Shown in pieces: positions 19,059-52,162 of a stretch of DNA of 64,000 nt (position 1 is the stretch's first letter; each line of letters opens with the position of its first letter). The DNA comes from an uncultured virus (IMG/VR IMGVR_UViG_2508501054_000004). Its lineage: Duplodnaviria; Heunggongvirae; Uroviricota; Caudoviricetes. Location of the stretch: the IMG/VR virus record IMGVR_UViG_2508501054_000004, one strand, 5' to 3'. The notes under the pieces were generated by a model that had not been told where the DNA came from, did no database searches, and saw only the letters and a list, made by a program, of their open reading frames with translations. The position numbers and the translations under genes were made by a program.

Positions 19059-19626
19059 TGGCGCTCCTGCTGAACGAATCCCTGTACTAAGACTGCGCGT
19101 AACGACGTGGCTTGCTCGCAAGGCCTCCGCAACAATTGGGAAACCTGTGGATCTGCTCAATCGAGGCGCGCAGTCGTCACAGCAGATGGACTGTGCCGCT
19201 GATAATAGACAGAAAACACAGACTTGACGCCATTTACATACTGGCAGCAGCTGCGGGAGCGCGCGTCTATACAAATCCTGCACTGCGATGGGTTGCAGAT
19301 GGATTCAGATTACACCGGAGGTTCTAGGTAGTGCGGTCTTCTGGGCCTTCTGGATTGTACTCATAGTGGCCTGTTCCGGACTTCAACGATAACTGGAGAC
19401 AGCCCTCGAATTGTTGACCGACCGGTATCGGATGAAGCAGCGCTTGTTGAACGTCCGCTTTTGGCCGATTGCCGCCCCCCCTATGAGGGACAGCAAGCGG
19501 CTAAAACCCGCCACTCCCCGCGGGCAGTTTTCAATCAGCGCCACCAGTTTGGAGAGCAGCCCGGTTGACCCCGCAAAGTAAGCCACTCAATATGCTGTGA
19601 ATCAATCAGCAGGGATGATCACCGAC

Positions 19627-20115
19627 ATGGCCTTTGACGCGTATTTGAAAATTGACGGAATTCCAGGTGAGGCTCTTGACGCTCAATTTAAGGACTGGAT
19701 AGAAATGGAAAATTTCGACCTAGGAGCAAGCCAGTCCGCCTCGGTCACGGCGACCAGTGCAGGCGGAGCAACGAGTGGTCGTNNNNNNNNNNNNNNNNNN
19801 NNNNNNNNNNNNNNNNNNNNNNNNNNNNNNNNNNNNNNNNNNNNNNNNNNNNNNNNNNNNNNNNNNNNNNNNNNNNNNNNNNNNNNNNNNNNNNNNNNNN
19901 NNNNNNNNNNNNNNNNNNNNNNNNNNNNNNNNNNNNNNNNNNNNNNNNNNNNNNNNNNNNNNNNNNNNNNNNNNNNNNNNNNNNNNNNNNNNNNNNNNNN
20001 NNNNNNNNNNNNNNNNNNNNNNNNNNNNNNNNNNNNNNNNNNNNNNNNNNNNNNNCAAGGGGGCGGTCAGGTGGTGGGCGGTTGGGATGCAATTTCCAAC
20101 AAGGTATACGCCTGA
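19627..20115 (+). CDS. hcp: Hcp1-family T6SS tube protein (middle in gap)
   Basis: MAFDAYLKIDGIPGEALDAQFKDWIE...SAGGATSGR ... GGWDAISNKVYA. Confidence 0.92.
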   Translation: MAFDAYLKIDGIPGEALDAQFKDWIEMENFDLGASQSASVTATSAGGATSGRXXXXXXXXXXXXXXXXXXXXXXXXXXXXXXXXXXXXXXXXXXXXXXXXXXXXXXXXXXXXXXXXXXXXXXXXXXXXXXXXXXXXXXXXXXXQGGGQVVGGWDAISNKVYA

Positions 20116-20133
20116 TATCACACAAGGAGATGT

Positions 20134-20667
20134 ATGCCCATGGACACCCAATCAATAGATACCAACAAAGTAGCGTACTGCACTTTTGAATTGACAGGCC
20201 AGCCGATGAGCCAGCTGAAGTGCAGTAATAATGAAAGCTATGAGGCTTTTTCAGGATTAACTGGCTTCGCCAACGATCCTGCTGCAGTGGGTGATCTAAA
20301 ACAGGGGCCACTGCCGCCTGGCCGATATTATATTCTTGATCGGGAAAGCGGCGGAAGAATGGGCTGGCTCCGAGAGCCGATCTCAGATTTGTTTGCCCGG
20401 ACTGATCGGAGTCATTGGTTTTCACTTTACCGTGACGACGGAAGTATTGATGATGAAACGATCGTCAGCAACGTGACGAGAGGTAATTTCAGACTGCACC
20501 CTATAGGTCCCCTAGGCTTAAGCGAGGGATGTGTCACCATGACATCTCAACTTGGCTTTGATCAACTAAGCATTTACTTGCGTAATATGGATGGAGACAG
20601 AATTCCCGGATCCGAAAAAAAATACTTTGGAGTTTTAGATGTCATTGACCCCAGGAACAAGAAATAA
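20134..20667 (+). CDS. DUF2778/Tlde1-like cell-wall-targeting T6SS effector
   Basis: AFSG...GPLPPGRYYILDRESGG...RGNFRLHP.G..GLSEGCVT (HxxGxxxxSxGC-type motif). Confidence 0.85.
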   Translation: MPMDTQSIDTNKVAYCTFELTGQPMSQLKCSNNESYEAFSGLTGFANDPAAVGDLKQGPLPPGRYYILDRESGGRMGWLREPISDLFARTDRSHWFSLYRDDGSIDDETIVSNVTRGNFRLHPIGPLGLSEGCVTMTSQLGFDQLSIYLRNMDGDRIPGSEKKYFGVLDVIDPRNKK

Positions 20668-20957
20668 TGCGCTTTATTAGAGCCACCATTAAAGTCTTTG
20701 CTGTAATTATAGTAGCCTCCATTATGACGCGAACCCTGATACTCAGCGGATTGGTGCGGACCGGATTAGAAACACCAGTTGGCAATGCAATTTATTTGTC
20801 CCTGCACGATGTATTCAGTGTCAACGGGATAGAGGATGCGGAAACAATGGTAATCTTTACGGTACTAATTGCCTCTTTAATCATTGTGACTTTTCTGGCC
20901 TGGTTGCTGGCCAAACTGGTGACCAAATACTCTTCATGGATGAAGAATAAATATTAG
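20667..20957 (+). CDS. small two-TM membrane protein, putative immunity to DUF2778 effector
   Basis: TAATG overlap with effector; two hydrophobic helices; homologue at 51796-52077. Confidence 0.7.
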   Translation: MRFIRATIKVFAVIIVASIMTRTLILSGLVRTGLETPVGNAIYLSLHDVFSVNGIEDAETMVIFTVLIASLIIVTFLAWLLAKLVTKYSSWMKNKY

Positions 20958-21306
20958 ATTCCGTGGCTTTCCATTAGCTACCATCTGTCGTTCGGATCTC
21001 GCTGACAACGGTTTGCCAAGCCTATCCGCCGAGTGACTGCTTCTGGCCGTTCCCTGCCGGTCGCCACTACCGCTTACGTTGAACAAGTCTATGCATTACG
21101 TTTTCTGACCGTCCGTCCGGTTAGATTGTCGTATTGTGGTCGTATTGATGTTGCATTGCGGTCGCATCGTGACCAACCTTTAAATAGCTCTTTTCGGTTT
21201 TTCCGAACGTCGGTACAACGTGGGCACGATCTGCGATTTGCGCCTGAATCGCAGCCAGAGCACCCGCTGTGCATGCTTCAACCAGCCATCCCCAAGGCTG
21301 TCACCA

Positions 21307-21330
21307 ACCCCGCCTCGGCGGGGTTTTTCA
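21307..21330 (+). terminator. intrinsic terminator in late leader (tR'-like)
   Basis: ACCCCGCC-TC-GGCGGGGT followed by a T tract, upstream of holin. Confidence 0.7.
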
Positions 21331-21360
21331 TTTCAGCTCCCCCGGAAGGGTGGCAACCGG

Positions 21361-21684
21361 ATGCGCACCATGCCCGACAAACCAGATACGTGGGCCAGGA
21401 TCGTGGCGGCCATTTCAAATCCACTGTGGCAGGGCATGATTATGGCCATCGTCGTTTCTCTACTGCGCATCCTCTACGACGCCAAAGAAACCAGTAAGCG
21501 TAGGATCTTATTCGAAGCGCTGATCTGCGGTTCGTTGAGTCTGGTCGCGTCCAGCCTGATTGAGTGGATGACCTGGCCGCCCAGCTTGTCGGTAGCTGCA
21601 GGTGGAACGATTGGCTTTCTTGGCGTTACGGCCATTCGCGAATTGGTGGCCCGCTTCATTGGCCGGAAGGTGGATTCACTATGA
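21361..21684 (+). CDS. lambda-family holin
   Basis: MRTMPDKPDTW..., three TM segments, EALICG, GGTIGFLGV..IRE. Confidence 0.9.
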   Translation: MRTMPDKPDTWARIVAAISNPLWQGMIMAIVVSLLRILYDAKETSKRRILFEALICGSLSLVASSLIEWMTWPPSLSVAAGGTIGFLGVTAIRELVARFIGRKVDSL

Positions 21685-22067
21685 AGGCTATCGCCGCTGC
21701 AATCATCATCGCGCTGGTGGGTGTCCTGCTCGTCGGCATTCAGCAGTACCGGGTCGTCGCATTGCGCGGCGAAGTGGAAGTGGAAGCAACTGCCAAGAAA
21801 ATAGCGCTCGACGCCAATCTCGAAAGCGAGGCCACCATCACCACGTTGCGCGCCGAGGCCCAACGTAACGCTGCCTATCTGAAGGACTTGAATCAACGGA
21901 TCAAGGCCAGCGAAAACAAAGCCAAACAGGCGAGGAAAGAATTTGAAGACCTCAAGCGCAACAGCAAGCCCGTTCGTGATTGGGCTTCTCAGCCTTTGCC
22001 TGACGGCCTGCGCGGCAAAGCCGGTGGTGGTCACAAAAACGTCAGCGGTTCGAATCGAACCCCCTGA
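21681..22067 (+). CDS. i-spanin (Rz/LysB-like)
   Basis: N-terminal TM, coiled coil, VRDWASQPLP. Confidence 0.8.
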   Translation: MKAIAAAIIIALVGVLLVGIQQYRVVALRGEVEVEATAKKIALDANLESEATITTLRAEAQRNAAYLKDLNQRIKASENKAKQARKEFEDLKRNSKPVRDWASQPLPDGLRGKAGGGHKNVSGSNRTP

Positions 22068-22215
22068 GTTGATTCCTTGCGAACGCATCAACGCCGATGA
22101 GGCGGACCTTCGTTCGAACGGCGACGTCTGGGAGCTGAAGGATCAGGCCATCAAGCTGCTCGACACCTGCGCCGATCAGGTCGACGCCCAGATCCTGCGC
22201 AGTCAGAGCAAGTAG
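21943..22215 (+). CDS. o-spanin lipoprotein (Rz1/LysC-like)
   Basis: overlaps i-spanin; lipobox LTAC; C...NGD...CADQVD. Confidence 0.8.
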   Translation: MKTSSATASPFVIGLLSLCLTACAAKPVVVTKTSAVRIEPPELIPCERINADEADLRSNGDVWELKDQAIKLLDTCADQVDAQILRSQSK

Positions 22216-22269
22216 CCGAGGCCACTGGCTTCATGCCCCATCTGGGGGCACGCCAAGCCCCTGTTTTTT

Positions 22270-22316
22270 GGGTCCTCCCTGAGGGGGGCTCCCTACACGG
22301 GTACGTGGACTCGCGG
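22270..22316 (+). other. lambda-type cos site (cosQ + cosN)
   Basis: GGGTCCT, 23 bp ending ACG, GGTACGTGGACT, CGCGG; same layout as lambda cos; just upstream of terS. Confidence 0.75.
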
Positions 22317-22370
22317 TTCTTGTGCAGCTGAGTTTTTTGCAGGGATGTCCGTCTTTCTAAAGGGTTGTGT

Positions 22371-22892
22371 ATGGGTAGGAAAGTCAGCAAGGCCGACTTG
22401 GGTGAGATCGTTGGCCGGGACGAACGCACCCTGACCCGGTGGCAACACGAAGGCATGCCGGTGGTTGAGTTTGGTCTGGGTCGTGGCAACGAAAACCAGT
22501 ACGACACCGAAGCGGTGGTCCAGTGGCTGATGCAGCAGGCCTCGCTCAACGGCAAGAAAGAATCGTCGCGTGACAGGCTTGACCGGGTTCGGGCCAACCG
22601 TGAAGAGCTGGCGCTGGCCAAGGAACTTGGGGAGGTGGTGATCGCCTCCGACATGATCCAGCGCTTCGAGGCCATGATCATGTCGGCCAAGGTCGAACTG
22701 CTTAATACATTTCCAGATGTGCTCGCCGCTGAGCTATCAGCCCGGTATGGCATAGAGGTGGACGATCTACTGATTCGTGAGCCCATCGAGGCAATCCTGA
22801 GAAGGCTATCGGACTATGACAATGATGCTGACTCAGTTGGAGATTCTGACGAATCGCCATACCCGGAGGGCCTTGAGGAAGACGGCGAGTGA
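22371..22892 (+). CDS. terminase small subunit (Nu1-like)
   Basis: VSKADLGEIVGRDERTLTRWQHEGMP wHTH, YDTEAVVQW. Confidence 0.9.
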   Translation: MGRKVSKADLGEIVGRDERTLTRWQHEGMPVVEFGLGRGNENQYDTEAVVQWLMQQASLNGKKESSRDRLDRVRANREELALAKELGEVVIASDMIQRFEAMIMSAKVELLNTFPDVLAAELSARYGIEVDDLLIREPIEAILRRLSDYDNDADSVGDSDESPYPEGLEEDGE

Positions 22893-24825
22893 GTCCCTGC
22901 ACAAGGCCTGTTTGAAGTGGGCTCCACCGCCGCGCATGAGCATCATCGAGTGGGCGGACAAGTATCGCTGGCTCTCCGCCGAAGAGGCTGCACGGCCGGG
23001 TAAATACCGGTTCGATGTGACCCCGCATTTGGTCTGGCCAGGTGGCCCACTTGAGGCGCTGGACGATCCAAACGTTACAGAAATCGTAGGGCGCAAGTCT
23101 GCGCAGGTGGCCTGGACGTCGGGCGTGTTGGGTAACGCCCTGGGCAAGTGGATCGACATCGATCCGTCTCCGATCCTGGTGCTGTTTCCCAAAGCAGAAG
23201 CGGCCAAGCAGTATGTGGGCGAAAAGCTTGAGCCCATGATTGAGGCGACGCCCCGGCTTCGCAAGAAGGTCGATCTACGCAGTCGCAAGCTGCAGCAACG
23301 CCAGGACTTCAAGCGTTTTCCGGGCGGCTTTCTGAAAATGGTGGGCTCCAACAGTCCGGCGAGCGTGAAGTCCACGCCGGTGCCGAGAGTCGCTGTCGAG
23401 GAGCCTGATGACTGCAACCTCAACCTGCGAGGGCAGGGGGACAGCATCAAGCTGGCTAAGGAACGTTTGAAGACGTTTCGCCGCTCGAAAATCATCATCG
23501 GCGGCACCCCGACCATCAAGGGGTTGTCGGCCATTGATGCGGAGCTGGAAATCTCCGACAAGCGCGAAGGGCTCGTGCCTTGCCACGAATGCGGACAGTC
23601 GCACGCGTTGAGCTTCGACAATCTGTTCTGCGCGGACGATCCCGACTATCACCACGAGGTGTATGGCAAGAAGCGGCCGGAACATGCTTATTACGCCTGC
23701 CCACACTGCGGCTGTTCGTGGGATGACAACCAGAAAAACGCGAACCTCAAACACGGCCGTTGGGTCGCTACGGCCGAGTTTAGGGGGATTGCCGGTTACA
23801 TTCTCAACGAGCTGTACGCCACCTTCTGGGGATCGCGCTTCCAGGCGCTGATGGAGAAAAAGCTTCAGGCCGAGCACGCCGCGTCCCACGGCAACATCGG
23901 GCCGATGATCGCCTTCGTCAACAGCTCCAAGGGGGAGAGTTACGAATACAAAAGCGATGCACCCAAAACCGATGAGCTGGAAAAGCGGGCTGAGCCTTAC
24001 GCAGAGCTGACGGCACCCAATGGTGTGCTGCTGATTACGGTGGGCGTCGACGTTCAGGGGGACCGGCTGGCGCTGGTCATCATCGGCTGGGGCCGGGGTG
24101 AAGAATCGTGGCGACTGTACTGGGGGGAGCTGTACGGTAATCCCATCGATCCGCATGACGCCGTTTGGCAGGAACTGGATCGGCTAATCGCCAAGCCTGT
24201 GGCGACAGAGGGCGGAGCGCAGCTGGTCATTTCCGCCGTGAGTATCGACAGCTCGGACGGCAACACCAGCGACGCGGTCTACGGGTACGTTCGGGATCGG
24301 CAGCGCTACAACATCATGGCGATCAAAGGTGCGTCGATTGACAGCCGTGATAAGGAAATCTTTACCCGGCCGTCCCCGTCGGTTGACTCCTCCCAGGACA
24401 ACACCAAAGCGTCGAAATATGGCTTGCGCGTCTACATCGTCGGAACCCACAAGGCCAAGACGCTGATCGACGGACGTCTTCGACTCACCGGCGCAGGGCC
24501 GGGGCGGATGCACTGGTACAGCGAGATCCGCTCGGACTACTACGAGCAGCTCACCAATGAAGTGCTGGCCCCGCACGCTCGCAACCCCAGCAAGATGGTG
24601 TGGCAGAAGAAGGCGGGTCGCCGCAACGAAGCGCTGGATTGCGAAGTGTATGCACTGCATGCGGCCAGAAGCTTGAAGACCCATCTGTTACGCGAACATG
24701 AGTGGGAGCAGCTGGAGCAACAATTGCTGCAGCCCACTCTTTTCAACACCGAGCAGGCCGTCACTCCTGTGCCACGTAAAGCGAATGCTCGCGGTCGTGG
24801 CACGCGCAGCCGTGCAGGCTATTAG
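22816..24825 (+). CDS. terminase large subunit (GpA family); start uncertain
   Basis: KSAQVAWT, GGTPTIKG, CHECG/CPHCG, GVDVQ, RNEALDC. Confidence 0.93.
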   Translation: MTMMLTQLEILTNRHTRRALRKTASESLHKACLKWAPPPRMSIIEWADKYRWLSAEEAARPGKYRFDVTPHLVWPGGPLEALDDPNVTEIVGRKSAQVAWTSGVLGNALGKWIDIDPSPILVLFPKAEAAKQYVGEKLEPMIEATPRLRKKVDLRSRKLQQRQDFKRFPGGFLKMVGSNSPASVKSTPVPRVAVEEPDDCNLNLRGQGDSIKLAKERLKTFRRSKIIIGGTPTIKGLSAIDAELEISDKREGLVPCHECGQSHALSFDNLFCADDPDYHHEVYGKKRPEHAYYACPHCGCSWDDNQKNANLKHGRWVATAEFRGIAGYILNELYATFWGSRFQALMEKKLQAEHAASHGNIGPMIAFVNSSKGESYEYKSDAPKTDELEKRAEPYAELTAPNGVLLITVGVDVQGDRLALVIIGWGRGEESWRLYWGELYGNPIDPHDAVWQELDRLIAKPVATEGGAQLVISAVSIDSSDGNTSDAVYGYVRDRQRYNIMAIKGASIDSRDKEIFTRPSPSVDSSQDNTKASKYGLRVYIVGTHKAKTLIDGRLRLTGAGPGRMHWYSEIRSDYYEQLTNEVLAPHARNPSKMVWQKKAGRRNEALDCEVYALHAARSLKTHLLREHEWEQLEQQLLQPTLFNTEQAVTPVPRKANARGRGTRSRAGY

Positions 24826-24835
24826 AGGTTCAATC

Positions 24836-25051
24836 ATGACTGACGCACAAATGCGCCTGGAGCAAGTACGGGCGGCGATCTCTGACGTCCTTAAAAAAGG
24901 TCAGCGTCTCAAAAGAGCAGATCGCGAGATCTATAGGGCCGAGCTCGACAGCCTGCGCTTGCTGGAGCAGCAGTACGCCAAAGAGGTCGCGCTGGAACAG
25001 GCATCGCTGCAGGGCAGGGGGCGTAATCGCATCTCCTACATGGTGATTTGA
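24836..25051 (+). CDS. gpW-like head completion protein
   Basis: 71-aa ORF between terminase and portal. Confidence 0.7.
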   Translation: MTDAQMRLEQVRAAISDVLKKGQRLKRADREIYRAELDSLRLLEQQYAKEVALEQASLQGRGRNRISYMVI

Positions 25052-25053
25052 TT

Positions 25054-26655
25054 ATGGGTTTTTTCCGTAAAGACCCTGCCGAGTTGTTGATGCGAGAGGC
25101 ACTCAAGCTCGCCAAGTCTGTGTCTGAAGGGTCGCCTGCCAAAGCGCAGGGTGGCGGTGGCGGGGTTGAAACCCGCTGGCGCGGTGCATCCCGTGTGCTG
25201 CGTAGCATGGCAGGCTGGATTCCGGGATTGGGCAGTGCCAGGCGCGACCTGCACCACAGCGAGCGGCGCATGCTGGTAGCCCGGTCGCGTGATGCCATGC
25301 GCAACCATCTGATCGCTCGGGCGGCTATCACCCGTCTGCGCACCAATGTGGTCGGCACCGGCCTGGTCTGCCGTGCGCAGATCGATCATATCGCTGTCGG
25401 CATCGACGAGCAGCAGGCCGAGCAACTCAATGCTCAACTGGATAGGATCTGGTCGCTGTACGCCGATGACCCCCGCGAGTGTGATGCCGAAGCCACGCTC
25501 AATCACTACCAACTGCAGGCGCTGGTGCTCATATCGGCCATGGTCTGCGGCGACGTTCTGATCGCCAGCCCCGACGATGAGCGTCCGGGATGCATCTTCA
25601 GCACCCGTTTGCAGTTGATTGAATCGGATCGTGTCTGCAATCCCGACGGGGGTATGGACCGCGCAGACATGGTTGAAGGTGTCGAGTTTGACCGGTTGGG
25701 AGCCCCCTTGGCGTATCACGTCTGCAACGGCTATCCCAATGAGTATTTGGCAGGGCAGAACCTGGCATGGGAGCGCCTGCCTGCTTTCGGCGATACGACC
25801 GGCAGGCGTCGGGTTATGCATGTCATGTCGGACAAGGAAAGACCGGGCCAGAAGCGAGGCGCTCCCTACCTGGCTCCGGTGCTGGAACCGCTGCAGAAGC
25901 TGGAGCGCTACAGCAGTGCTGAGTTGATGGCAGCGGTTATCTCCGCGATGTTCACGGTGTTCATCAAAAAGAACAACGACTTCAACGTCTCCAACTTGCC
26001 CATGTCCGCCATGGGTAACGAGGGCGCGGGTGGTGACACCACCGACGATGGTGAGCTGGCATTGGGGGAGGGGGCCATTGTGGACCTGGGTATGGGCGAG
26101 GAGCCGGTGGTAGCAAACCCGGCTCGACCCAACGCCCAGTTCGACCCTTTCTTCACGGCGGTCGTTAAAGAGATTGGCGCGGCGCTGGAACAGCCGATGG
26201 AAGAGTTGCTGCTGCATTACAGCAGCAGTTACAGCGCGGCTCGCGCTGCGATGCTGCAGGCGTGGCGGTTCTACAGCGTTCGGCGCTGGTGGCTGGCTTG
26301 TGACTTCTGTCAGCCCAGCCGAGAGTTGATCATTGATGAGGCGGTGGCCAGAGGGCTGATCCACCTGCCGGGTTATTCAGATCCTGCGAAGCGTAAAGCC
26401 TATTGTCAGGGGATCTGGATCGGCCCGGCGCGAGGCGCTATCGATGAGCTCAAAGAGGCCAATGCAGCCGGTAAGCGAATCGAAATCGGGGTCAGCAACG
26501 AAACCCTCGAAACGGCCGCGATGACGGGCGAGCCCTGGCAGCAGGTCTATCGCCAGCGTGTTCGCGAGGTCGAGCAGCGACGCGCAGACAACCTGCACAT
26601 GTTGCCCAAAGGCGGCGTTATCGCTGACCCACCCACACCACCCAACGAGGAATAA
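25054..26655 (+). CDS. portal protein, lambda family
   Basis: ARSRDAMRN, VVGTGL, RPGQKRGAP, SYSAARAAML, IDELKEA. Confidence 0.93.
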   Translation: MGFFRKDPAELLMREALKLAKSVSEGSPAKAQGGGGGVETRWRGASRVLRSMAGWIPGLGSARRDLHHSERRMLVARSRDAMRNHLIARAAITRLRTNVVGTGLVCRAQIDHIAVGIDEQQAEQLNAQLDRIWSLYADDPRECDAEATLNHYQLQALVLISAMVCGDVLIASPDDERPGCIFSTRLQLIESDRVCNPDGGMDRADMVEGVEFDRLGAPLAYHVCNGYPNEYLAGQNLAWERLPAFGDTTGRRRVMHVMSDKERPGQKRGAPYLAPVLEPLQKLERYSSAELMAAVISAMFTVFIKKNNDFNVSNLPMSAMGNEGAGGDTTDDGELALGEGAIVDLGMGEEPVVANPARPNAQFDPFFTAVVKEIGAALEQPMEELLLHYSSSYSAARAAMLQAWRFYSVRRWWLACDFCQPSRELIIDEAVARGLIHLPGYSDPAKRKAYCQGIWIGPARGAIDELKEANAAGKRIEIGVSNETLETAAMTGEPWQQVYRQRVREVEQRRADNLHMLPKGGVIADPPTPPNEE

Positions 26656-26657
26656 CC

Positions 26658-29295: not shown

Positions 29296-29296
29296 G

Positions 29297-43515: not shown

Positions 43516-43553
43516 CCGACCAGCTCAACACCTACTCATCAGGAGAACCATGC

Positions 43554-44099: not shown

Positions 44100-44267
44100 T
44101 CGAGCTATGGGCAGTTCAGCCCTGAGCGGAAAGAGTCACTGCAGCAAATTGAAAAAGAGCGACCAGTCGAGATGCGTCAACATCGCGGCTGGTCACTGTT
44201 CCCGCAGATTACCCCTGCAAGTCCAGCCAAGGCTCTCGCTTCGTGCACAAAGCAGAGCGAGCCTAGC

Positions 44268-44287
44268 ACCTGTCTATATATACAGTA
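44268..44287. promoter_or_regulatory. LexA (SOS) box upstream of methylase
   Basis: CTG-TCTATATATA-CAG at 44270-44285. Confidence 0.8.
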
Positions 44288-44302
44288 AAGGTCTTGCTTT
44301 TT

Positions 44303-45097
44303 ATGTCCACACCTATCATCCCTTGGATGGGCGGCAAACGCCGCCTTGCCGACCGTCTCATCCCGCTGTTCCCACCCCACGAATGCTATGTTGAAGTGTT
44401 CGCTGGCGGTGCGGCCCTCTACTTCATGCGTCCCCAGGCAGCCCCGGTTGAGGTCTTGAACGACATCAACGGAGATCTGGTCACGCTGTATCGCGTCGTC
44501 CAAAACCACCTTGAAGAATTCGTCCGCCAGTTCAAATGGGCGCTCAGCTCGCGCCAGGTATTTGAGTGGCAGAAGATGACCCGCCCCGAAACCCTCACTG
44601 ACATCCAGCGCGCAGCCCGGTTCTTCTACCTGCAGCACCACGCCTTCGCAGGCAAGGTGAGTGGCCAGACGTTCGGGACCGCCACGACGGGACCTGCCAT
44701 CAATCTGCTGCGGATCGAGGAAAATCTGTCTGCGGCCTGGCAGCGGTTGTCAGGTACGTACGTGGAGAATCTGCCGTGGCTCGAATGTGCCGAGCGCTAC
44801 GACCGGCCTCACACGTTCCACTACATGGACCCGCCTTACTGGCAGACGGCCGGGTATGGTGTGGATTTTCCGTTTGAAAACTATGAGCGAATGGCCGACT
44901 TCATGCGACGCTGCAAGGGAAAGGTTATGGTCAGCATCAACGACCACCCTGACATACGGCGGGTGTTTGAAGGCTTCCATTTTGAAACGGTGGACATTCG
45001 CTACAGCACAGCGAACCAACGAAAGGGAGGGGCTGATGTCAGCGGTGAGTTGGTAATCATGAGTTGGGAGCCTAATGCGCTTGGGGGACTGTTTTGA
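44303..45097 (+). CDS. DNA adenine methyltransferase (Dam/D12 class)
   Basis: WMGGK, YVEVFAGGAA, ND, DPPY. Confidence 0.93.
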   Translation: MSTPIIPWMGGKRRLADRLIPLFPPHECYVEVFAGGAALYFMRPQAAPVEVLNDINGDLVTLYRVVQNHLEEFVRQFKWALSSRQVFEWQKMTRPETLTDIQRAARFFYLQHHAFAGKVSGQTFGTATTGPAINLLRIEENLSAAWQRLSGTYVENLPWLECAERYDRPHTFHYMDPPYWQTAGYGVDFPFENYERMADFMRRCKGKVMVSINDHPDIRRVFEGFHFETVDIRYSTANQRKGGADVSGELVIMSWEPNALGGLF

Positions 45098-45304
45098 TGT
45101 TCGCTTCTGCTCCCTTCCCAAACCGCCGGATCCAATAATTTAACTTCTAAACCGAAGCTGACGTTCTCGCGCAACGGAAAGAAAGGCCGCTTTGTGACTG
45201 TCCTTTGTCACAAAATGCACTTGCAGTATGAAAGGTAGCATTCACGACCGTCAGCCGTGGTACACCTCGTATAGCAAACATATCAGAGGTCCGCTGAGCC
45301 ACCA

Positions 45305-47953
45305 TCAGACCTGCGGGGCGTCTATCGCCTCGTCAAGCTTGATGATGGTATCTAGCATGCGCCGAACGATAACTGCATCGAACTCTTCCGCACGGTCCCC
45401 TTCATGGGTTCCTTTGTTCAGGCAGTTCCACTCGACTTTGTGCTTATCGCGGTATCCAAGTATCTCGCCCAGGTGCGGCACGGCCTCTTGGAAAACGGCC
45501 ACGTCTTTCCCGGCGAGGAACTTGTGGAGCCCCGTCGCCAAGCTCATGAGGTCAGGGTCGCCCGGCCCCCTCATCCCAACACTGATCTGTGCCTGCAGAT
45601 TCTTACTTGCAATCTTCTTCCAAAGACGGTTGAGCTCTTCTTCGAACGCTTTCCGAATGTAACTCAGGGAGTCGCGAATACGACCATCCTCGTAGCTGCG
45701 GGTCGCTACCGTTAGGTAGTGGCGGGGCGAGTCGAGCTTCACGGTGATCTTCTTTGCTGCGAACGGTGCGAGAAAGTCGATCCGGGTCACCGTTTCCTTA
45801 TATTTTTTCATCGGCACGGCGTTCTCAAGGCGCTTTACGAAATCCTCACCGTGGGTCGTGACGATGAGTTGCCTCTTGCCGACTTCTTCTGGATTTAAGA
45901 TAAGGTCGATGATCGCGCTACGGTGCTCATCGTCGATCGAGTTTACGACATCGTCGAATATCAGGAACGGGAGGCGGTCTCTGGTGATCTTTGCCAACAG
46001 GATTGCGAGCCCAAGGCACCGTATGTGACCTTCGCTCAGTACCTGGAGCGCGTCGCACTTGTCCCCGTTCTCGAACTCAATCTCTATCCTGGCCCCTGCG
46101 GCCGTCGGCAACTTCAGTGAGTTGAGCCTGTCGGAGGGATGATCATTCTTGTTGATCTCGTTGTAAAACTTGAGGGTCTTCTCGTTGAGATCCGCAGCCA
46201 AGGCCAAGGGAAGTCCGGTGTTATAGGCCAGGAGTTTTAGGCGGAACGAGTTGTAGGCCATACTGTAGCTCCAGCTTCTCTCTACCCCTGGTTTCTCGGC
46301 TTCCGCCTCCCTGATGAGATCTTCGTTCTCTTGGTTGAACTTCTCGATAGCCTGTGTCGCCTCCTTCTCGCTTTTCGCGTTCGCAGTAACGAGGGTCGAG
46401 ATGGCCACAACTTCCTCGAGGTCCCTGGTGATCGCCAGGTTATCGTCCTCTAGGTTCTTGATCGCGGCTTTGGATTGTTCGACCTTTGCGTTATGGGTGG
46501 CGGTCGCATCCTTCAGCTCCTGTAGGAGCCCGCGCAATTCCGGCACTGCTCGGAGAAAGGTCTCGATGCCCACCGGGTCCTTAGCGTCGGACGCCTCAGT
46601 GCTGAACGAGCCAACCTCGGGCGCTCTGGCGAATCCGACAGCCGTGGCGGACGCCGGAAGCTTGGCGATTGTTGAAATCAAGTCCCGCCAGCCGAGGTCG
46701 AGTGCCTCCCGGATTTCCTTGATCCGTTCTTCGGCGCTCAGGGCGGCGTCGAAGTGCTTCAGCTTTTCCTCCGAATTGCTGTAGGGATCGACCGGAACTA
46801 CGAGTTGTCCGTCTCGGTAGAGTTCGGAGGCGCATGCAGGGCACTCGTTCTCAAACTTTTCGCGGTTTCCCTGGATCGCGACGTAAAGGTCCCGAAGAGA
46901 AAGTTGGTCCTTGTATTGGTTGAGGAACGCTTCCGATTCCGCCTTCTCTTTGATGAGCGGAAGTAGTTCGTCGACTCTGGCGAGGAGGAAGTCTGTTTCG
47001 GGATCGGTGGCCGTTTTGAGGTTATGCAGGCGGCCGATCTCGGTGTTATTCGCCTTTTGCTTGCCACCATTGCCGTCGGTTCCGGTTAGGTCGGCCTTAA
47101 TTTCCTCGAGGTCCTTGCACTCGGGGTATTTTGATAGCAGGACGGCGCCTCGTATTTCAGCGGCTTTGGCTTTTTCCGGGAGGCCCTCGAGGGTTACCCT
47201 GTGTCCGGCGAGGACCTTCGCCCGTTCCGCGAGATTCCTCCCATTCTTTCCAACTAACTCGGCCAGGTAAGTGTCAAGGCTATCGTTGAACTGCGTTGCG
47301 AACGCGTTGAACTCTTCCAAGCCGAACAGCGCCGCCAACCGCGCCTGCTGGGCTACCGGGGTATTGGCCGCAACTCGTGCGAATCCGTCGATTCGATTCT
47401 TTTCGATGAAGCAGAATTCGAAACTTCGGAGGTCCGCTTTTACTTCGATTCCTTTCTCCTTCGCGGTATCTCCATACAGGACAGGTTTCGCTGACCTCCT
47501 CGATGTGGCGTTCCTGATGTAGTCCGAGACAGGGATCCGCTTCGAATCCGCTTCGTGGATCGAGGCGAGCAATCCGTATTCGAGAGCCTCGCAGAGACTC
47601 GACTTTCCCGTCCCGTTCGGTCCGTAGACGAAGGTGTACGGATTCTTGAATTCGAAAGTGTGCTTATCGGAGAACCCACGAAAGTGCTCGACTTCCACTT
47701 TGGTTAGCCGGACGATCTCGCTTTCTTTGGCGTTCGCTTCATCGACCGCGATTTCGAGTACCGAAGGCGCTGCCTCCCCCTTATCGACGATCAGTTTTGC
47801 CAAGACTTTACCGCGTCGGCCTCCGGCTGATCCGACCGCCGCGATTTCGTCGAAGCCGCCCAATATCAGGTTGACTAGTTTTTTCTCATATTCGGTTAGA
47901 GTCGGGGCCGACTTGACCAAGAAACGTTTGAATTCGACTAGTGATTTGGACAT
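45305..47953 (-). CDS. Rad50/RloC-like ABC ATPase with zinc hook and C-terminal HEPN-like domain
   Basis: GPNGTGKS, CPAC hook in coiled coil, LSEG signature, IFDD, TTH; C-terminal RKAFEE...NKGTH. Confidence 0.75.
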   Translation of the reverse strand: MSKSLVEFKRFLVKSAPTLTEYEKKLVNLILGGFDEIAAVGSAGGRRGKVLAKLIVDKGEAAPSVLEIAVDEANAKESEIVRLTKVEVEHFRGFSDKHTFEFKNPYTFVYGPNGTGKSSLCEALEYGLLASIHEADSKRIPVSDYIRNATSRRSAKPVLYGDTAKEKGIEVKADLRSFEFCFIEKNRIDGFARVAANTPVAQQARLAALFGLEEFNAFATQFNDSLDTYLAELVGKNGRNLAERAKVLAGHRVTLEGLPEKAKAAEIRGAVLLSKYPECKDLEEIKADLTGTDGNGGKQKANNTEIGRLHNLKTATDPETDFLLARVDELLPLIKEKAESEAFLNQYKDQLSLRDLYVAIQGNREKFENECPACASELYRDGQLVVPVDPYSNSEEKLKHFDAALSAEERIKEIREALDLGWRDLISTIAKLPASATAVGFARAPEVGSFSTEASDAKDPVGIETFLRAVPELRGLLQELKDATATHNAKVEQSKAAIKNLEDDNLAITRDLEEVVAISTLVTANAKSEKEATQAIEKFNQENEDLIREAEAEKPGVERSWSYSMAYNSFRLKLLAYNTGLPLALAADLNEKTLKFYNEINKNDHPSDRLNSLKLPTAAGARIEIEFENGDKCDALQVLSEGHIRCLGLAILLAKITRDRLPFLIFDDVVNSIDDEHRSAIIDLILNPEEVGKRQLIVTTHGEDFVKRLENAVPMKKYKETVTRIDFLAPFAAKKITVKLDSPRHYLTVATRSYEDGRIRDSLSYIRKAFEEELNRLWKKIASKNLQAQISVGMRGPGDPDLMSLATGLHKFLAGKDVAVFQEAVPHLGEILGYRDKHKVEWNCLNKGTHEGDRAEEFDAVIVRRMLDTIIKLDEAIDAPQV

Positions 47954-48438
47954 ATGCGCTCGCGTAGGAATTGTTGTCGATTATTTGGTCGGGCGCGGCA
48001 TGTCGGCACGATGCCTCCATTCTATGCAAAAGCATTTTCGGGGAAAGCAGTATTCGATGTTTTGTGGAAGATGGCGAGGCACCAGTCGGCGAATTTTGGC
48101 CTATAGCGGACGCGCAATCCTAGACTGTCGGATGTGCACTTTGAGCCGGGTGCCTCGGACAAAAGCTAGGCTCTTCTTCCTCTCGACCCTACCATTGGAG
48201 CCTAAAATGATGATCGTCCGGGTTGGGGCGTTTTCTGACTGTCGAGATTGAACGAAATCGGCCTGTAGCTGCCCTTAACATAAGGTAGAAAGCGGCCAAA
48301 AAGCGATCAGATGCCAGCATTGCAGATCGCTAAAAAGATAAACGCCAAAGCGCGGGCTTAAACCCCGCCTTTATAGGATAGAGCGATAGAGTAGAACCAG
48401 ACATGGTGCTTATGAATTAAAAATACTCTAGTGTTATT

Positions 48439-49065
48439 TTAATTTCTTTTCGGACGCGACGGGATCGATTTTCCTAGTTCAGCGGCTGATGCTCTCAGGG
48501 AATGCCTGTGTAAGAGATTTTCGACGATGTCCATCACAAGTGTTACGTCAGCCGATTGAAGAACATATCCTCTATGAGCGGCCGCATGGCCAGCATCAAG
48601 AGCAACTTCGAGTATCTCTTGGTCTACAGAGCTCAAATGCCCACAGCGCACAAGTGCTGCAAGCTTTTTGGCAAAGCCGCCAACGTCACCAATAGTAGCG
48701 TTGATGTAAATATCTATGAGCGCCCTAACTCCCATAATGGCCAACCTACGGCTGTCTGTGTGTAGCGCTCTGTATACCTCTTGCAGAAGAGACTGCCAGT
48801 CATCTGGAAGCTTCGACATCCAAGGTGGGCTCTTTCTGGATATCCTAGGTGGAAAGTACTCAGTCTCTGCACTCATATCATAGTCTGAGTGCCAATGCTC
48901 TATTTTGAATAAAATGCTTTGGCATCCACGACACGACCATATCCTGTATATGGTTCCCCACTCTTCCCAGGGATCGCGATCTGTATTTGCCTCGCTGACG
49001 GCGTACTGCCTGACCTCGTCGTGCATTGTCCAGCTCGCGCAACGATTGCAATGGGCACTACTCAT
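48439..49065 (-). CDS. DUF4145-domain (HEPN-like) protein with N-terminal zinc ribbon
   Basis: CNRC...CRGC; EVYRAL...GVRALID...GHAAAH. Confidence 0.8.
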   Translation of the reverse strand: MSSAHCNRCASWTMHDEVRQYAVSEANTDRDPWEEWGTIYRIWSCRGCQSILFKIEHWHSDYDMSAETEYFPPRISRKSPPWMSKLPDDWQSLLQEVYRALHTDSRRLAIMGVRALIDIYINATIGDVGGFAKKLAALVRCGHLSSVDQEILEVALDAGHAAAHRGYVLQSADVTLVMDIVENLLHRHSLRASAAELGKSIPSRPKRN

Positions 49066-49429
49066 TATTTGCTCCCGAGATCATCTCTTCGTCACTGATC
49101 TGTTCAGGGTTCGGTGGTGCTGGGAATACTTGGATTGCGTAGATAGCTAAGTTTTTCGAAATCTCCGCCAAGCGGCTGGCGAAACCCGTGTCCCAGTGCG
49201 TTTAAGTGGCGGTAAATTTTTTCCTCCCCCGTAGCATATCTTGGGGCCATTGCGTCGGCTCCTTTTGCTCCGTTCAACCTCGAAAAACGCCTGATGTTTT
49301 CGATCCGCGCGTTCGTTATGACTGAGCAGAATAGCGCCTCGTGATCGGTACGCGTAAGGATTTGTACGTTGAATTGTACGCATTGCAGAAAAACAAAAGG
49401 CCTGCATCGCTGCAAGCCCTTGTTTTATA

Positions 49430-49474
49430 TGGTGCCGGCACCAGGAGTCGAACCCGGGACCTACTGATTACAAG
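49430..49474 (-). other. att site: 3' fragment of tRNA-Thr(UGU)
   Basis: minus strand CTTGTAATCAGTAGGTCCCGGGTTCGACTCCTGGTGCCGGCACCA (anticodon loop to CCA); 5' half of tRNA absent. Confidence 0.9.
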
Positions 49475-49791
49475 GAAGGTGCTTTTAACCTATAGATCAA
49501 TGACTTGCAGCTTTTTTTATTACGTGCCCATGACGTGGAGGCGATGACCTACGTGAGGTCGTGGCGCGTTATTACGTGGCACGAAGAGCGCTGATGACTA
49601 GGGCTACCAGTCGAGGGGTGGTTGCGTCCCAAGGCGTCTAAATGGCGTATACGGGATTAGGGGGCGTATCAGCTAGGCACGGGGGCAGCTCTCATCGTGC
49701 AATCAGACCAAGCACACTCTAGGCTGGTAAAAGAAGAAGAAACATAGCTAATATTTGCCTTCGAAATTTTGAAAAGCAAGGAGCTGCGATT

Positions 49792-50417
49792 ATGTCTTTT
49801 GATGCTTTTATGAAAGTTGATGGTGTTGAGGGCGAGTCTCTTGACGATGGTCACAGAGGTTGGATCGAGCTGCTTTCTTATCANNNNNNNNNNNNNNNNN
49901 NNNNNNNNNNNNNNNNNNNNNNNNNNNNNNNNNNNNNNNNNNNNNNNNNNNNNNNNNNNNNNNNNNNNNNNNNNNNNNNNNNNNNNNNNNNNNNNNNNNN
50001 NNNNNNNNNNNNNNNNNNNNNNNNNNNNNNNNNNNNNNNNNNNNNNNNNNNNNNNNNNNNNNNNNNNNNNNNNNNNNNNNNNNNNNNNNNNNNNNNNNNN
50101 NNNNNNNNNNNNNNNNNNNNNNNNNNNNNNNNNNNNNNNNNNNNNNNTGCAAGGGCTCCCACATCAAAAATGTGACCATCCGAATCCATCGAGCGGGAAC
50201 TGAAAAATTCAAGTACCTGGATATAGTGCTTGAAGAGGTGCTGATTGCGTTGGTGAGTGGGCAAGGTGCAGAACAATCTGGCTTTCCTGTCGAAGTTGTA
50301 ACTTTAAATTACGGTCGAATAAAGTTTGAGTACTCACAACAGCGACGTGCTGATGGTGGGAGTGCGGGTATCGTTTCCGGTGGCTGGGACAGGACCGCTA
50401 ACAAGCCATTTGCGTAA
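49792..50417 (+). CDS. hcp: Hcp1-family T6SS tube protein (middle in gap)
   Basis: MSFDAFMKVDGVEGESLDDGHRGWIE ... EVVTLNYGRIKFEYSQQ...GWDRTANK. Confidence 0.9.
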
Positions 50418-50429
50418 GGAAACGTATTT

Positions 50430-51275
50430 ATGTCTGATGATGGAAGCTTTCGCGTCATCCTCAATTTTGCCCAAATGGCGGCGATACTCGCTCATGAGTC
50501 CCTTACGCCTGCTGAAATTATGTCTAACCGTATATTTGGCAGTCTTCGACTCGTCGGCGGCATCATTGAACTTGCCGGTTCGGGCGTCTTGTGTGCATTA
50601 CCTGAGCCTACGATGATTTCAAAAGTCGGCTGTGTGGCAATGGGAGTTCATGCTTCTGACCAGCTGTCAGCCGCATCAACGCAGATTGTAACAGGAAAAC
50701 AAACCGATTCTTATGCATTCAAAGCCGGGATGACTGCGGCAGAGGCATTGGGGGCTTCTCGAGAAACTGGTCAGGTTATTGGGCTAGCTACTGAGTTTGT
50801 GGTTCCCCTGACTACTGCTTCCATGTACAACGCATTTCGAGTTTCCTCGATACGCGCTGGCAGAATGACGATTGAAGTTAGTGAAAAACCCAAAAACTTG
50901 CCCAGAAAAGATCCAGGTGGTCATACACGGCGGGATCATTTTCAAAAAGATATTTCCGGATTACAGCAACGCTTTAAGAAGGTAAGGTCGGCGACTGTAA
51001 TGTCTACATTTGAAAAGATGGATATTGCAGAATGGGCAGTAAGCCAAACATTAAAAGCAAATCGTCTCAGAATTCTAATGTATTCCAAAACTCAATTTAT
51101 TCGTAAGAGCAATCGACTAGTCTTGGACTTTGATGCTAAGCAGGAGGTGGGTTGGGGCATATACCGTTCAGCGCCAGATATCCCAGTAGCCATGACAAAG
51201 GTGAGGGTGATTATAGAGTTTGTAGAATTTAATCACATGCCCAGGTACATCCTTACTGCCTTCCCGATTCCTTGA
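50430..51275 (+). CDS. putative T6SS effector with hydrophobic N-terminus and CdiA-CT RNase A-like toxin domain
   Basis: GGHTRRDH...MSTF...YILTAFP pattern; follows hcp. Confidence 0.7.
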   Translation: MSDDGSFRVILNFAQMAAILAHESLTPAEIMSNRIFGSLRLVGGIIELAGSGVLCALPEPTMISKVGCVAMGVHASDQLSAASTQIVTGKQTDSYAFKAGMTAAEALGASRETGQVIGLATEFVVPLTTASMYNAFRVSSIRAGRMTIEVSEKPKNLPRKDPGGHTRRDHFQKDISGLQQRFKKVRSATVMSTFEKMDIAEWAVSQTLKANRLRILMYSKTQFIRKSNRLVLDFDAKQEVGWGIYRSAPDIPVAMTKVRVIIEFVEFNHMPRYILTAFPIP

Positions 51276-51285
51276 GGTTTTTGTA

Positions 51286-51657
51286 ATGCGCGGATATATG
51301 GAATTGATAAGCTTTATGAAAGAATTGAGTGATGGAATACTCGATCATCTACCTGAAGAGCAAAGGGTAGGGCAGCTTACCGTTGAAGAGGTAATCGAGA
51401 AATGGATGTCAAGTAAGTCTTACTGCTCCAGCCTCTCGCTGAGAAAAGATATAGAGACATATATAAGTCTTCAAAAATCTGGCGATTTTTCAGTTGACGA
51501 GATACTGTCGTGGTATGACCTTTGTTTCATTCCTGAAAGGTTTGGAGTTGATGAGCATGTTTTTTTTAGTGATGTGCTAAAATCAATAAATTTTCATATA
51601 GAAGAGAAGAGGAAGTTTTTTTTTATTAAATACTTTGGCTGGTTAGGGTTTAAGTGA
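51286..51657 (+). CDS. putative cognate immunity protein
   Basis: acidic AT-rich 123-aa ORF 10 bp after toxin. Confidence 0.65.
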   Translation: MRGYMELISFMKELSDGILDHLPEEQRVGQLTVEEVIEKWMSSKSYCSSLSLRKDIETYISLQKSGDFSVDEILSWYDLCFIPERFGVDEHVFFSDVLKSINFHIEEKRKFFFIKYFGWLGFK

Positions 51658-51751
51658 TTATATCTAAATTCCTACAGATAAGATCTTGATGAGGTCAATG
51701 CTGCGCGCTTGATTCAGCTTGACAGCAGTGTGGCGATTTGCCAGGCTGAAT

Positions 51752-51796
51752 TATTATGGAGTGTTGGATGTGGTAGGTTCTAGGGATAATAAATAA
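51752..51796 (+). pseudogene. 3' remnant of a DUF2778/Tlde1-like effector
   Basis: encodes YYGVLDVVGSRDNK*, versus YFGVLDVIDPRNKK* at end of 20134-20667; same TAATG junction. Confidence 0.75.
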
Positions 51797-52077
51797 TGCG
51801 CATCATTAAAGTTATCTTGTCAGTATTCGTTGTTATCTTGTTGACCATATTTTTAGCTCGTTTCATGATTGATAGCGGGCTGGCTCAAGCCGGGCTTGAT
51901 ACCCCCGTGGGTAATTCTATATACATCCTGATGAAAAATCTTTTTGGCGTAGCTGGAGGCGAGAGTGGAGAAGGGATTGTAATTGATATGGTAATAACTG
52001 CATCTTTCATTTTTGTTGTCCTGGCGTGTTGGTTGCTTTCAAAACTAAAGGCAGAAATCTCTCGGATGAAAACTTAG
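51796..52077 (+). CDS. orphan membrane immunity protein, homologue of 20667-20957
   Basis: SGLAQAGLDTPVGNSIY vs SGLVRTGLETPVGNAIY; WLLSKL vs WLLAKL. Confidence 0.75.
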   Translation: MRIIKVILSVFVVILLTIFLARFMIDSGLAQAGLDTPVGNSIYILMKNLFGVAGGESGEGIVIDMVITASFIFVVLACWLLSKLKAEISRMKT

Positions 52078-52137
52078 CTGACGTCCATAAGTGCTGTGGC
52101 GGACAATTGATTAGTTTTCCTGAGTTTGTTCTTTAAT

Positions 52138-52162
52138 AAGCCGCTAACTAGCGGCTTTTTTA
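52138..52162 (+). terminator. intrinsic terminator closing hcp cassette
   Basis: AAGCCGCTA-AC-TAGCGGCTT followed by a T tract. Confidence 0.75.

Follow-up and report, generated by a model that had tools for sequence, protein, structure and literature searches.

In Vibrio parahaemolyticus, Hcp auxiliary modules comprise an hcp gene outside the main type VI secretion system (T6SS) cluster, a cargo effector gene, and a gene for a small transmembrane immunity protein; they adjoin integrases, transposases, and phage proteins and work via the resident T6SS (Jana et al. 2022, mSystems, PMC9765294). In Vibrio cholerae, the Aux3 cluster places PAAR-TseH-TsiH by an integrase, inside attachment (att) sites, on a prophage-like element (predicted myovirus) that excises by site-specific recombination, no phage particles having been obtained (Santoriello et al. 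2020, PMC7721734). Temperate Burkholderia phages AB4 and Mana carry a PAAR-TseV(VRR-Nuc)-TsiV moron, for which use via the host T6SS was proposed (PMC13366799). Salmonella SPI-6 encodes Tlde1a, a peptidoglycan toxin acting in the periplasm, with a downstream immunity gene whose product, Tldi1a, is Sec-exported (PMC9638812). We analyzed a 64,000-nucleotide (nt) stretch of DNA from an uncultured virus of the Caudoviricetes (IMG/VR IMGVR_UViG_2508501054_000004; the whole stretch is hereafter called the window). It holds two prophages, A (~5.9-45.1 kb) and B (its integrase gene at 52195-53421 and further genes on to the window end), and two gene sets led by hcp. Cassette A (19627-20957) consists of hcp, a Tlde1 (DUF2778) peptidoglycan-toxin gene, and a gene for a membrane protein of 96 amino acids (aa) with two helices; cassette B (49792-52077) consists of hcp, an RNase A-like toxin gene, a short gene likely to confer immunity, and a gene for a homologous 93-aa membrane protein.

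We consider it likely that the two gene sets represent T6SS Hcp auxiliary modules, which two temperate phages of a syringae-group Pseudomonas carry as moron cargo, and that the phage Hcp would load the host T6SS. The reading is drawn from the DNA and is carried by the gene identities, a conserved catalytic motif, the position within prophages, the variability of the two cargo slots, the linkage of Hcp to effector, and a remnant of tlde1 in cassette B. The window shares the gene order of hcp, effector, and small membrane protein with the V. parahaemolyticus modules, function being demonstrated there and proposed here; unlike those modules, whose effectors are DUF4225 proteins, it encodes Tlde1 and an RNase A-like toxin, and its modules occupy defined cargo slots in two prophages, of which one is rated complete (PMC9765294). 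As in Aux3, a T6SS adaptor-effector-immunity set lies beside an integrase inside att, whereas the Aux3 adaptor is PAAR, not Hcp, and its effector is TseH (PMC7721734). As in the Burkholderia phages, a temperate phage carries a full T6SS cargo cassette, although theirs is led by PAAR and has a nuclease effector (PMC13366799).

The features of the two cassettes are as follows, in window coordinates.

19485-21049, plus strand: mobile module A (upstream region, hcpA, tlde1, membrane protein gene, and ~90 nt beyond), delimited by homology to the IMG/VR contig L006.
19627-20115, plus strand: hcpA (PF05638), interior masked.
20134-20667, plus strand: tlde1, for a Tlde1-family (DUF2778) L,D-transpeptidase-like toxin of 177 aa (PF10908, phrog_14093).
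20667-20957, plus strand: membrane protein gene A, 96 aa, two hydrophobic segments.
21306-21325, plus strand: terminator-like hairpin in the interval between cassette A and the holin gene, with an 8-bp stem (6 GC pairs) and a T run, called by consensus match alone.
49792-50417, plus strand: hcpB (PF05638 on both visible ends), interior masked.
50430-51275, plus strand: RNase toxin gene, 281 aa, with an N-terminal domain (1-160) of no known family and a C-terminal RNase A-like domain (PF18431).
51286-51657, plus strand: immB, for a 123-aa probable immunity protein of the RNase toxin, directly 3' of the toxin gene.
51751-51795, plus strand: remnant of a tlde1 3' end, 31/45 nt identical to the end of cassette A tlde1.
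51796-52077, plus strand: membrane protein gene B, 93 aa, sharing 44% identity with the product of 20667-20957.
52138-52157, plus strand: terminator-like hairpin closing cassette B, an 8-bp stem followed by TTTTTT, called by consensus match alone.

Both Hcp calls were made on the visible ends of the genes, the interiors being masked in the window. The 52 visible N-terminal residues of HcpA matched positions 1-47 of PF05638 (E 1.9e-9; 38.3 bits against a cut-off of 23.5), and HcpB matched the same family with its N-terminal 30 residues (E 1.2e-5) and its C-terminal 89 residues (E 4e-10). Seven N runs interrupt the window, two of them within the hcp genes: that in hcpA (19783-20055) is 273 nt long versus 285 nt for the homologous span in an otherwise identical IMG/VR locus, and that in hcpB (49884-50147) is 264 nt long versus 133 nt. 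Because the N-run lengths differ from the homologous spans, coordinates and frames across the masks are unreliable. The visible ends of hcpB lie in different frames; a frameshift was rejected in favor of a masking artefact, the N runs not having the lengths of the homologous spans. In the loci that match the window exactly to the left and right of the mask, the hcpA frame was open over 176 aa from GTG or 166 from ATG (L007), and the hcpB frame over 164 aa (L008).

The product of tlde1 matched Tlde1_dom (PF10908, E 3e-32; 112 bits, cut-off 30.1) and phrog_14093 (E 5e-69). Across 16 homologues, W95, R116, S130, G132, and C133 were invariant and H122 nearly so; by motif and spacing, these residues match W93, R115, H121, S128, G130, and C131 of Salmonella Tlde1a (PMC9638812). 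The window protein is like Tlde1a in its Pfam family, its His...Ser-x-Gly-Cys motif, and the immunity candidate encoded downstream. It differs in having E131 for H129, the His within the (S/T)-H-G-C part of the L,D-transpeptidase-type catalytic motif, in having a two-helix membrane candidate in place of a Sec-exported soluble protein, and in that its gene is carried by a phage instead of the main T6SS island (PMC9638812). Neither toxin has a leader-like hydrophobic N terminus, and Tlde1 is devoid of any hydrophobic segment, the absence of an export signal being as expected of T6SS cargo. Searches of PDB sequences by phmmer and by profile gave no match to either toxin or to the 16-sequence profile of Tlde1. 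The spacing to the respective hcp gene is short in both cassettes (19 nt for tlde1 and 13 nt for the RNase toxin gene).

Residues 164-279 of the RNase toxin matched the RNAse_A_bac family (PF18431) over the whole model, 1-113 of 113 (E 1e-26; 94.4 bits, cut-off 27). RNase A-like toxins of this family occur as C-terminal tips of CdiA proteins (CdiA-CT), an example being that of Yersinia kristensenii. The window toxin is like them in that its C-terminal domain spans the entire model; unlike them, it is encoded next to hcp as a protein in its own right and does not form the tip of a large CdiA filament, and its immunity candidate falls below the CdiI_2 cut-off. Indeed, a length of 281 aa (154-301 aa in relatives) and a position beside hcp are not those of a CdiA C terminus, and no CdiB-type gene was matched among the window open reading frames (ORFs) scanned. 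The N-terminal part, which has one moderately hydrophobic segment, is common to 111 protein clusters, the named ones being nearly all Pseudomonas "RNase A-like domain-containing protein". A feature-based Atlas match of this part to DUF4225 (score 0.87) is a lead only, DUF4225 not being matched by Pfam.

A sequence-only reading of the window had named these cassette genes, had called the two Hcp proteins clearly different, and had seen no T6SS apparatus genes. All of this was borne out: Hcp, Tlde1_dom, and RNAse_A_bac were above their Pfam cut-offs in the hidden Markov model search; the visible N termini of HcpA and HcpB were identical at 14 of 30 positions (47%); and no T6SS core family besides Hcp was matched among the window ORFs scanned (Pfam, 22 + 13; PHROGs, 62).

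The 96-aa and 93-aa membrane proteins are homologous (44% identity, E 5e-24), each having two hydrophobic segments that flank a loop of ~35 residues with conserved acidic residues; the 96-aa protein matched no family in Pfam, PHROGs, or NCBIfam. Its gene begins within the stop of tlde1 (TAATG). A small two-helix ORF was also found 3' of the Tlde1 homologues in the Pseudomonas loci aligned, and 3' of tlde1 in three phages (YO356_1 of Ralstonia, and JC1 and phiBtTUL1a of Burkholderia). Because of this start/stop overlap and of the recurring position after Tlde1, we read the two-helix protein as probably the Tlde1 immunity protein, with its acidic loop predicted to lie in the periplasm.

In cassette B, the membrane protein gene is preceded by 45 nt resembling the tlde1 3' end, which, translated in frame, read as a Tlde1 C terminus. 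The identity of 31/45 compares with 8-14/45 for the three preceding 45-nt blocks and with a maximum of 25 among 20,000 random pairs. Two other B-type phages (L009 and L010) hold cassette B at 92% identity, but without the remnant, the membrane protein gene, and the terminator-like hairpin, homology to them breaking at ~51745-51750. Since the remnant is present here, and since L009 and L010 have neither the remnant nor the membrane gene, cassette B is a composite of an hcp-RNase-immunity unit and the tail of an hcp-tlde1-immunity unit. We infer that its membrane protein gene is an orphan immunity gene of the Tlde1-immunity type.

Prophage A corresponds to a 39,189-nt IMG/VR provirus rated 100% complete by CheckV; by our own arithmetic on the IMG/VR call, it extends over ~5901-45077 of the window. 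The following features define its early region and the borders of the site at which cassette A lies.

6791-7939, minus strand: prophage A integrase gene, followed by excisionase and by CI- and CII-like regulators.
13568-16261: prophage A primase gene.
16554-17072, plus strand: PHROG 4300 gene (phrog_4300, E 3.7e-70), left border of the hotspot.
21358-21684, plus strand: holin gene (Phage_holin_3_1, E 8.6e-32; phrog_126), right border of the hotspot.

After the primase, the order is holin, Rz, Rz1, Nu1 and gpA terminase, head genes, contractile tail genes, endolysin, and Dam methylase, and cassette A thus lies between the early and lysis genes of a provirus rated complete. We surveyed 29 IMG/VR loci with a PHROG 4300 homologue, 27 of which had the holin gene as well. 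The site was empty in 16 of the 27 (250-298 nt between the two border genes) and filled in 11 (inserts of 1.3-4.3 kb), 10 of these with cargo other than that of the window; L076, which is the window's own provirus, was alone in having the combination of hcp, tlde1, the membrane protein gene, and a 648-aa ORF. The remaining inserts code for AAA_21/AAA_15 ATPases together with an HNH protein, an AAA_23-type ATPase, a 968-aa DEAD helicase, DUF4279 and DUF2971 proteins, and small unknown ORFs. The 648-aa ORF (17337-19283, minus strand) at the same site matched no Pfam, PHROGs, or NCBIfam family; in the Atlas it falls among hypothetical-protein clusters of Pseudomonadota and Actinomycetota (feature score 0.98, structural TM 0.78).

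In lambdoid phages, toxin morons such as stx lie between the late regulator and the lysis genes. Cassette A is like these in being cargo just upstream of a holin gene at a site variable among relatives, and unlike them in that the PHROG 4300 gene has no shown regulatory role and the cassette has its own conserved upstream region and terminator-like hairpin. Indeed, ~140 nt 5' of hcpA are kept in L006 and ~70 nt in a P. amygdali locus (L004). The label of late regulator given to 16554-17072 by the sequence-only reading was not supported: PHROG 4300 is a family of unknown function, and the match to PA0613_fam was below threshold (E 5.4e-5; 23.4 bits against a cut-off of 100). A promoter scan found sites no more numerous than in shuffled sequences.

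For prophage B, the slot is bounded by two features.

49430-49476, minus strand: 3' part of tRNA-Thr(UGU), 47 nt, single copy in the window, the integrase-proximal att of prophage B.
52195-53421, minus strand: prophage B integrase gene (intB), P2-like (phrog_1, phrog_14425).

Beyond the integrase gene follow excisionase, primase, and P2-type portal, terminase, and capsid genes up to the window end. No second copy of the tRNA-Thr fragment was found in the window, no whole tRNA was called, and Rfam matched nothing in 48900-49900. Integrases like IntB (62-90% identity) were found at 23 places, spread over 22 of the 401 Pseudomonas genomes sampled, and from these places 20 downstream regions were taken, one place at a contig end and two partial matches being left out. 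The tRNA-Thr fragment, at 95-100% identity, lay 3' of the integrase in 19 of the 20 regions, the remaining region being only 1871 nt long. The distance from the integrase stop to the fragment was 119-2294 nt in these relatives and is 2719 nt in the window. In two genomes (G227 and G089), the integrase-distal copies are whole tRNA-Thr(tgt) genes, 35.9 and 34.4 kb off, and the integrase-side copies were not called as tRNA. The fragment is therefore the integrase-proximal att, which places cassette B inside prophage B. The slot between att and integrase gene was empty (<=196 nt) in 8 of 19 relatives and held other genes in the rest, namely, those for PIN_12, KAP NTPase, MtlR-like, and M78 peptidase proteins and unknowns; T6SS genes were not found in it in any of the 19 Pseudomonas genomes. 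Thus, the earlier claim that both cassettes belong to prophage DNA stands, with the addition that both occupy variable cargo sites, as seen from the hotspot survey and the tRNA-Thr att fragment. Both have the marks of prophage morons: phage-gene flanks, dispensability in relatives, and deviant composition (GC of unmasked parts, 48.6% for cassette A and 43.3% for cassette B; 57-59% for the phage backbones).

The two phages had also been called unrelated, which was an overstatement. Their integrase-excisionase modules (7112-8118 and 52516-53522) share 70-78% DNA identity, the offset between them being 45,404 nt throughout, whereas the prophages are otherwise different. Close relatives of either backbone were not found among GenBank phages.

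Modularity was evident from L006, an IMG/VR contig of 14.9 kb whose integrase region is of the B type (95% identity). Its att-integrase slot holds cassette A (96-98% identity) in the orientation opposite to that of cassette B in the window, and the contig matches 19485-19782 and 20056-21049 of the window in a different phage backbone. The proposal that the cassettes are modular is thereby supported, cassette A being found in the slot of a B-type phage. The L006 slot also holds a Peptidase_C58 gene (YopT/AvrPphB type, type III effector-like; 4050-4892) adjoining cassette A, so that a type III effector-like gene and a T6SS cassette share one phage slot.

In Pseudomonas at large, Tlde1 homologues were present in 9 of the 401 sampled genomes, at 13 places; directly upstream was Hcp in 10, PAAR in 1, and neither in 2. 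We inspected ~20 kb around nine of these places (five scanned fully, two partly, and two by the same ORF layout). The 104 proteins scanned belonged to ordinary chromosomal families, for example, a galactarate locus between DHDPS-family and GntR-family genes, and included no phage structural or T6SS core families. In P. amygdali ICMP 3918, the trio, with a 78% identical Tlde1, adjoins a tyrosine integrase. The RNase toxin was found in 15 of the 401 genomes, and 17 loci were examined: an HcpB-type hcp (78-97% identity over the visible parts) lay directly upstream in 9 and an immB homologue downstream in 11, and no IntB homologue or att core was found within 1.5 kb of the toxin in any. The idea that each toxin family travels with its own Hcp type, also put forward earlier, accords with these counts for Tlde1 (10/13) and the RNase toxin (9/17). 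Four chromosomal RNase-toxin loci of Pseudomonas (L120, L123, L124, and L133) carry in tandem either a further toxin fragment or a further immunity homologue, and look like arrays from repeated displacement.

Among 50,697 GenBank phage records, Tlde1 homologues occurred in 96 (88 Ralstonia, 7 Burkholderia, and 1 Salmonella genome record) and the RNase toxin in none; the visible HcpA piece matched no record, and the HcpB piece matched two, of 1.4-2.1 kb. The isolated temperate Burkholderia phage phiBtTUL1a (L003) carries Tlde1 with the two-helix gene (annotated as hypothetical) as well as a PAAR-VRR_NUC-TsiV cassette, at 5004-5743 and 7270-9680, within 4 kb and next to the integrase gene. Because both modules lie mostly in ordinary chromosomal places in other Pseudomonas, carriage by phage is the exception, and phage carriage of Hcp-led cassettes appears rare in the collections searched.

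The closest relatives bear the names P. tremae, P. amygdali, P. avellanae, P. syringae, and P. savastanoi, which points to the P. syringae group as the host. TssC (PF05943) was matched in both genomes with cassette A-like DNA (G002 and G003), in all nine Tlde1-carrying genomes, and in 349 of the 401 sampled genomes, a tally that includes three unpublished genomes (G376, G154, and G102). In P. amygdali, the visible parts of HcpA were 62-68% identical to the Hcp on the TssC contig and 95-96% identical to the Tlde1-linked Hcp, and those of HcpB were 46-57% identical to the T6SS-cluster-linked Hcp.

In public RNA sequencing (RNA-seq) data, 14 runs contained 35-40% of the sampled words of 20056-22300. 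Assembled contigs were compared for four runs of four studies, and the assemblies of all four studies contained a 2466-nt contig 97.6% identical over 20056-21047 (tlde1 and the membrane protein gene). The contig extends upstream and departs from the window sequence 31 nt past 21047, as in the arrangement of L006. In run X8, the cassette contigs had a depth of 300-460 versus 7 for the holin-like region; depth contrasts, like the parts of 20056-24000 left uncovered by RNA contigs, are not evidence of silence. These contigs are compatible with transcription of cassette A in culture.

From the gene content and these comparisons, we infer use of the host T6SS, secretion, toxicity, immunity pairing, and a benefit to the lysogen along the following lines. 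In a lysogen, the phage-borne Hcp would enter the tube of the host-encoded T6SS, and the lumen of the Hcp ring would hold the neighboring small effector during transport. Effector A, as a Tlde1-type L,D-carboxy/transpeptidase, would damage peptidoglycan in the periplasm of the recipient, and effector B, as an RNase A-like nuclease, would act in the cytoplasm after entry, its N-terminal domain probably having a role in loading or entry. The two-helix membrane protein, with its acidic loop probably in the periplasm, would guard the lysogen and its kin from effector A, and the 123-aa protein would guard them from effector B. Finally, an hcp-RNase-immunity unit would have replaced most of an hcp-tlde1 unit, leaving the orphan immunity gene of cassette B.

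Several observations weigh against this account. The integrity of both Hcp proteins rests on identical IMG/VR loci, the two interiors being masked in the window. The counterpart of Tlde1a H129, aligned by motif and spacing, is E131, and the two-helix protein, the putative partner of Tlde1, is unlike the Sec-exported Tldi1a (PMC9638812). For the 123-aa protein, the match to CdiI_2 (PF18593) was weak (E 0.0096; 17.1 bits, below the cut-off of 26.7), and CdiI_2 was not matched in a second scan at E 0.001. Linkage to hcp is also incomplete: 8 of the 17 RNase-toxin loci had no hcp match (with partial queries), and in all three phage records examined, of the 96 matching, Tlde1 and the two-helix gene stood without hcp. 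In RNA run X4, depth was equal for the cassette (75.8) and the holin-like region (77.8), and contigs are no proof of transcription.

It would also count against this account, and in favor of the cassettes as silent or useless passengers, that 52 of the 401 sampled Pseudomonas genomes had no TssC match. Such passengers would be orphan islets gained by illegitimate recombination, the T6SS being absent or incompatible or the genes not expressed. The modest identity of HcpB to the cluster-linked Hcp of P. amygdali agrees with this, as does the scarcity of the cargo (1 of 27 proviruses at the A hotspot, the window's own, and 0 of 19 species genomes in the B slot). We nevertheless judge it unlikely, as every reading frame is intact, the catalytic motif is conserved, the cassettes are maintained at 92-98% identity in several other proviruses, the tlde1-membrane region is present in RNA-seq assemblies, and TssC accompanies Tlde1 in nine of nine genomes. 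A different explanation, in which the pair of Tlde1 and two-helix protein serves the phage independently of a T6SS, by peptidoglycan remodeling near lysis or by phage exclusion, with hcp as a hitch-hiker, would account for the 96 phage records with Tlde1, for the pair without hcp in Ralstonia YO356_1 and Burkholderia JC1 and phiBtTUL1a, for the near absence of both Hcp pieces from phage records (none for HcpA and two tiny ones for HcpB), and for the lysis genes immediately downstream of cassette A. However, the Pseudomonas trio occupies ordinary chromosomal sites, hcp being upstream at 10 of 13, Tlde1 lacks an export signal, without which it could not reach the periplasm unaided, and a terminator-like hairpin stands between cassette A and the holin gene; besides, the PAAR-VRR_NUC-TsiV cassette of phiBtTUL1a indicates that T6SS cargo is usual on such phages, and cassette B would be left unexplained. 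We regard this explanation as distinctly improbable.

A further alternative concerns cassette B alone, which might be a separate islet at tRNA-Thr, outside prophage B, and be left behind at excision. The right end of prophage B lies beyond the window, so that its two att copies could not be compared there; the GC content is 43% versus 57% for the phage; and at none of the 17 species loci was an IntB homologue or att core found close to the toxin module. Against this, the att fragment follows the integrase stop by 119-2294 nt in 19 of 20 related elements with only cargo between, and a single copy of the fragment lies between prophage A and intB, where a separate islet would need a junction of its own. 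Moreover, L009 and L010, B-type phages 84-95% identical, hold cassette B in the same place, and L006 holds cassette A there, which makes a separate islet very improbable. Each of these explanations has some support, and all fit the data less well than T6SS Hcp auxiliary modules carried as phage cargo.

Building on the reading as phage-borne Hcp modules, a wider scenario can be offered tentatively, and we hold it to be rather doubtful as a whole. The cargo slots may be exchange points at which co-resident prophages trade whole Hcp-effector-immunity units among themselves and with the chromosome, and which alternatively hold anti-phage defense. A lysogen would then kill nonlysogenic kin via its own T6SS, the prophage acting as a greenbeard-like element that removes competitors without it, and the orphan immunity gene would shield carriers of phage B from carriers of Tlde1 cassettes.

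Some other features of the window lie outside the cassettes. In the interval that separates prophage A from the tRNA-Thr fragment (45305-49065, minus strand) are genes for an 882-aa SMC/RecF-like AAA ATPase (AAA_21, AAA_15, and AAA_23) and a 208-aa DUF4145 protein, resembling an anti-phage defense pair. The region left of integrase A (1-6800), which is broken by three masked runs, is probably defense and toxin-antitoxin cargo; it encodes an ApeA_NTD1 protein (1036-1984), a toxin/antidote pair (3589-4289; phrog "toxin" and dnstrm_HI1420), and a SocA/Panacea protein (5835-6395). No att-like repeat of prophage A was found in the window, nor was its left att. Between the primase and PHROG 4300 genes (16273-16566) are four to five copies of a GTGTGTTGGGT-rich repeat of 21-23 nt, and these GTGTGTTGGGT-rich repeats may be iterons of a replication origin.

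The novelty implied by the sequence-only reading has to be reduced, since mobile Hcp modules, a prophage-like T6SS cluster, and phage PAAR cassettes are in print (PMC9765294, PMC7721734, and PMC13366799). With mobile Hcp auxiliary modules and phage-borne PAAR cassettes already published, the locus is a fresh example of a described mechanism. Two further papers, as far as the parts of their text used here go, have no bearing on phage-borne Hcp cassettes: one had phage and tailocin loci removed from its data (PMC12994826), and the other is PMC11699363. Word searches of open-access main text, supplements aside, found no paper on Hcp-led cassettes in complete prophages or on a two-helix Tlde1 immunity protein. 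New in modest detail are the candidate immunity family, the scar of effector displacement, and the two defined cargo slots that otherwise hold defense-like genes.

Thus, the locus shows the exact sites at which temperate phages of a plant-associated Pseudomonas carry sets of Hcp-type T6SS weapon and antidote genes, and two phage sites that have anti-phage defense-like genes in relatives hold antibacterial weapon genes here. It brings forward a candidate new family of Tlde1 immunity proteins, small two-helix membrane proteins conserved from Pseudomonas to Burkholderia and Ralstonia phages, as well as a dedicated Hcp type accompanying an RNase A-like toxin. It also preserves what appears to be a recombination scar, in which one effector was displaced by another and an orphan immunity gene remained. 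If it is true that lysogens kill nonlysogens in this way, the spread of these phages would be coupled to kin competition among their bacterial hosts.

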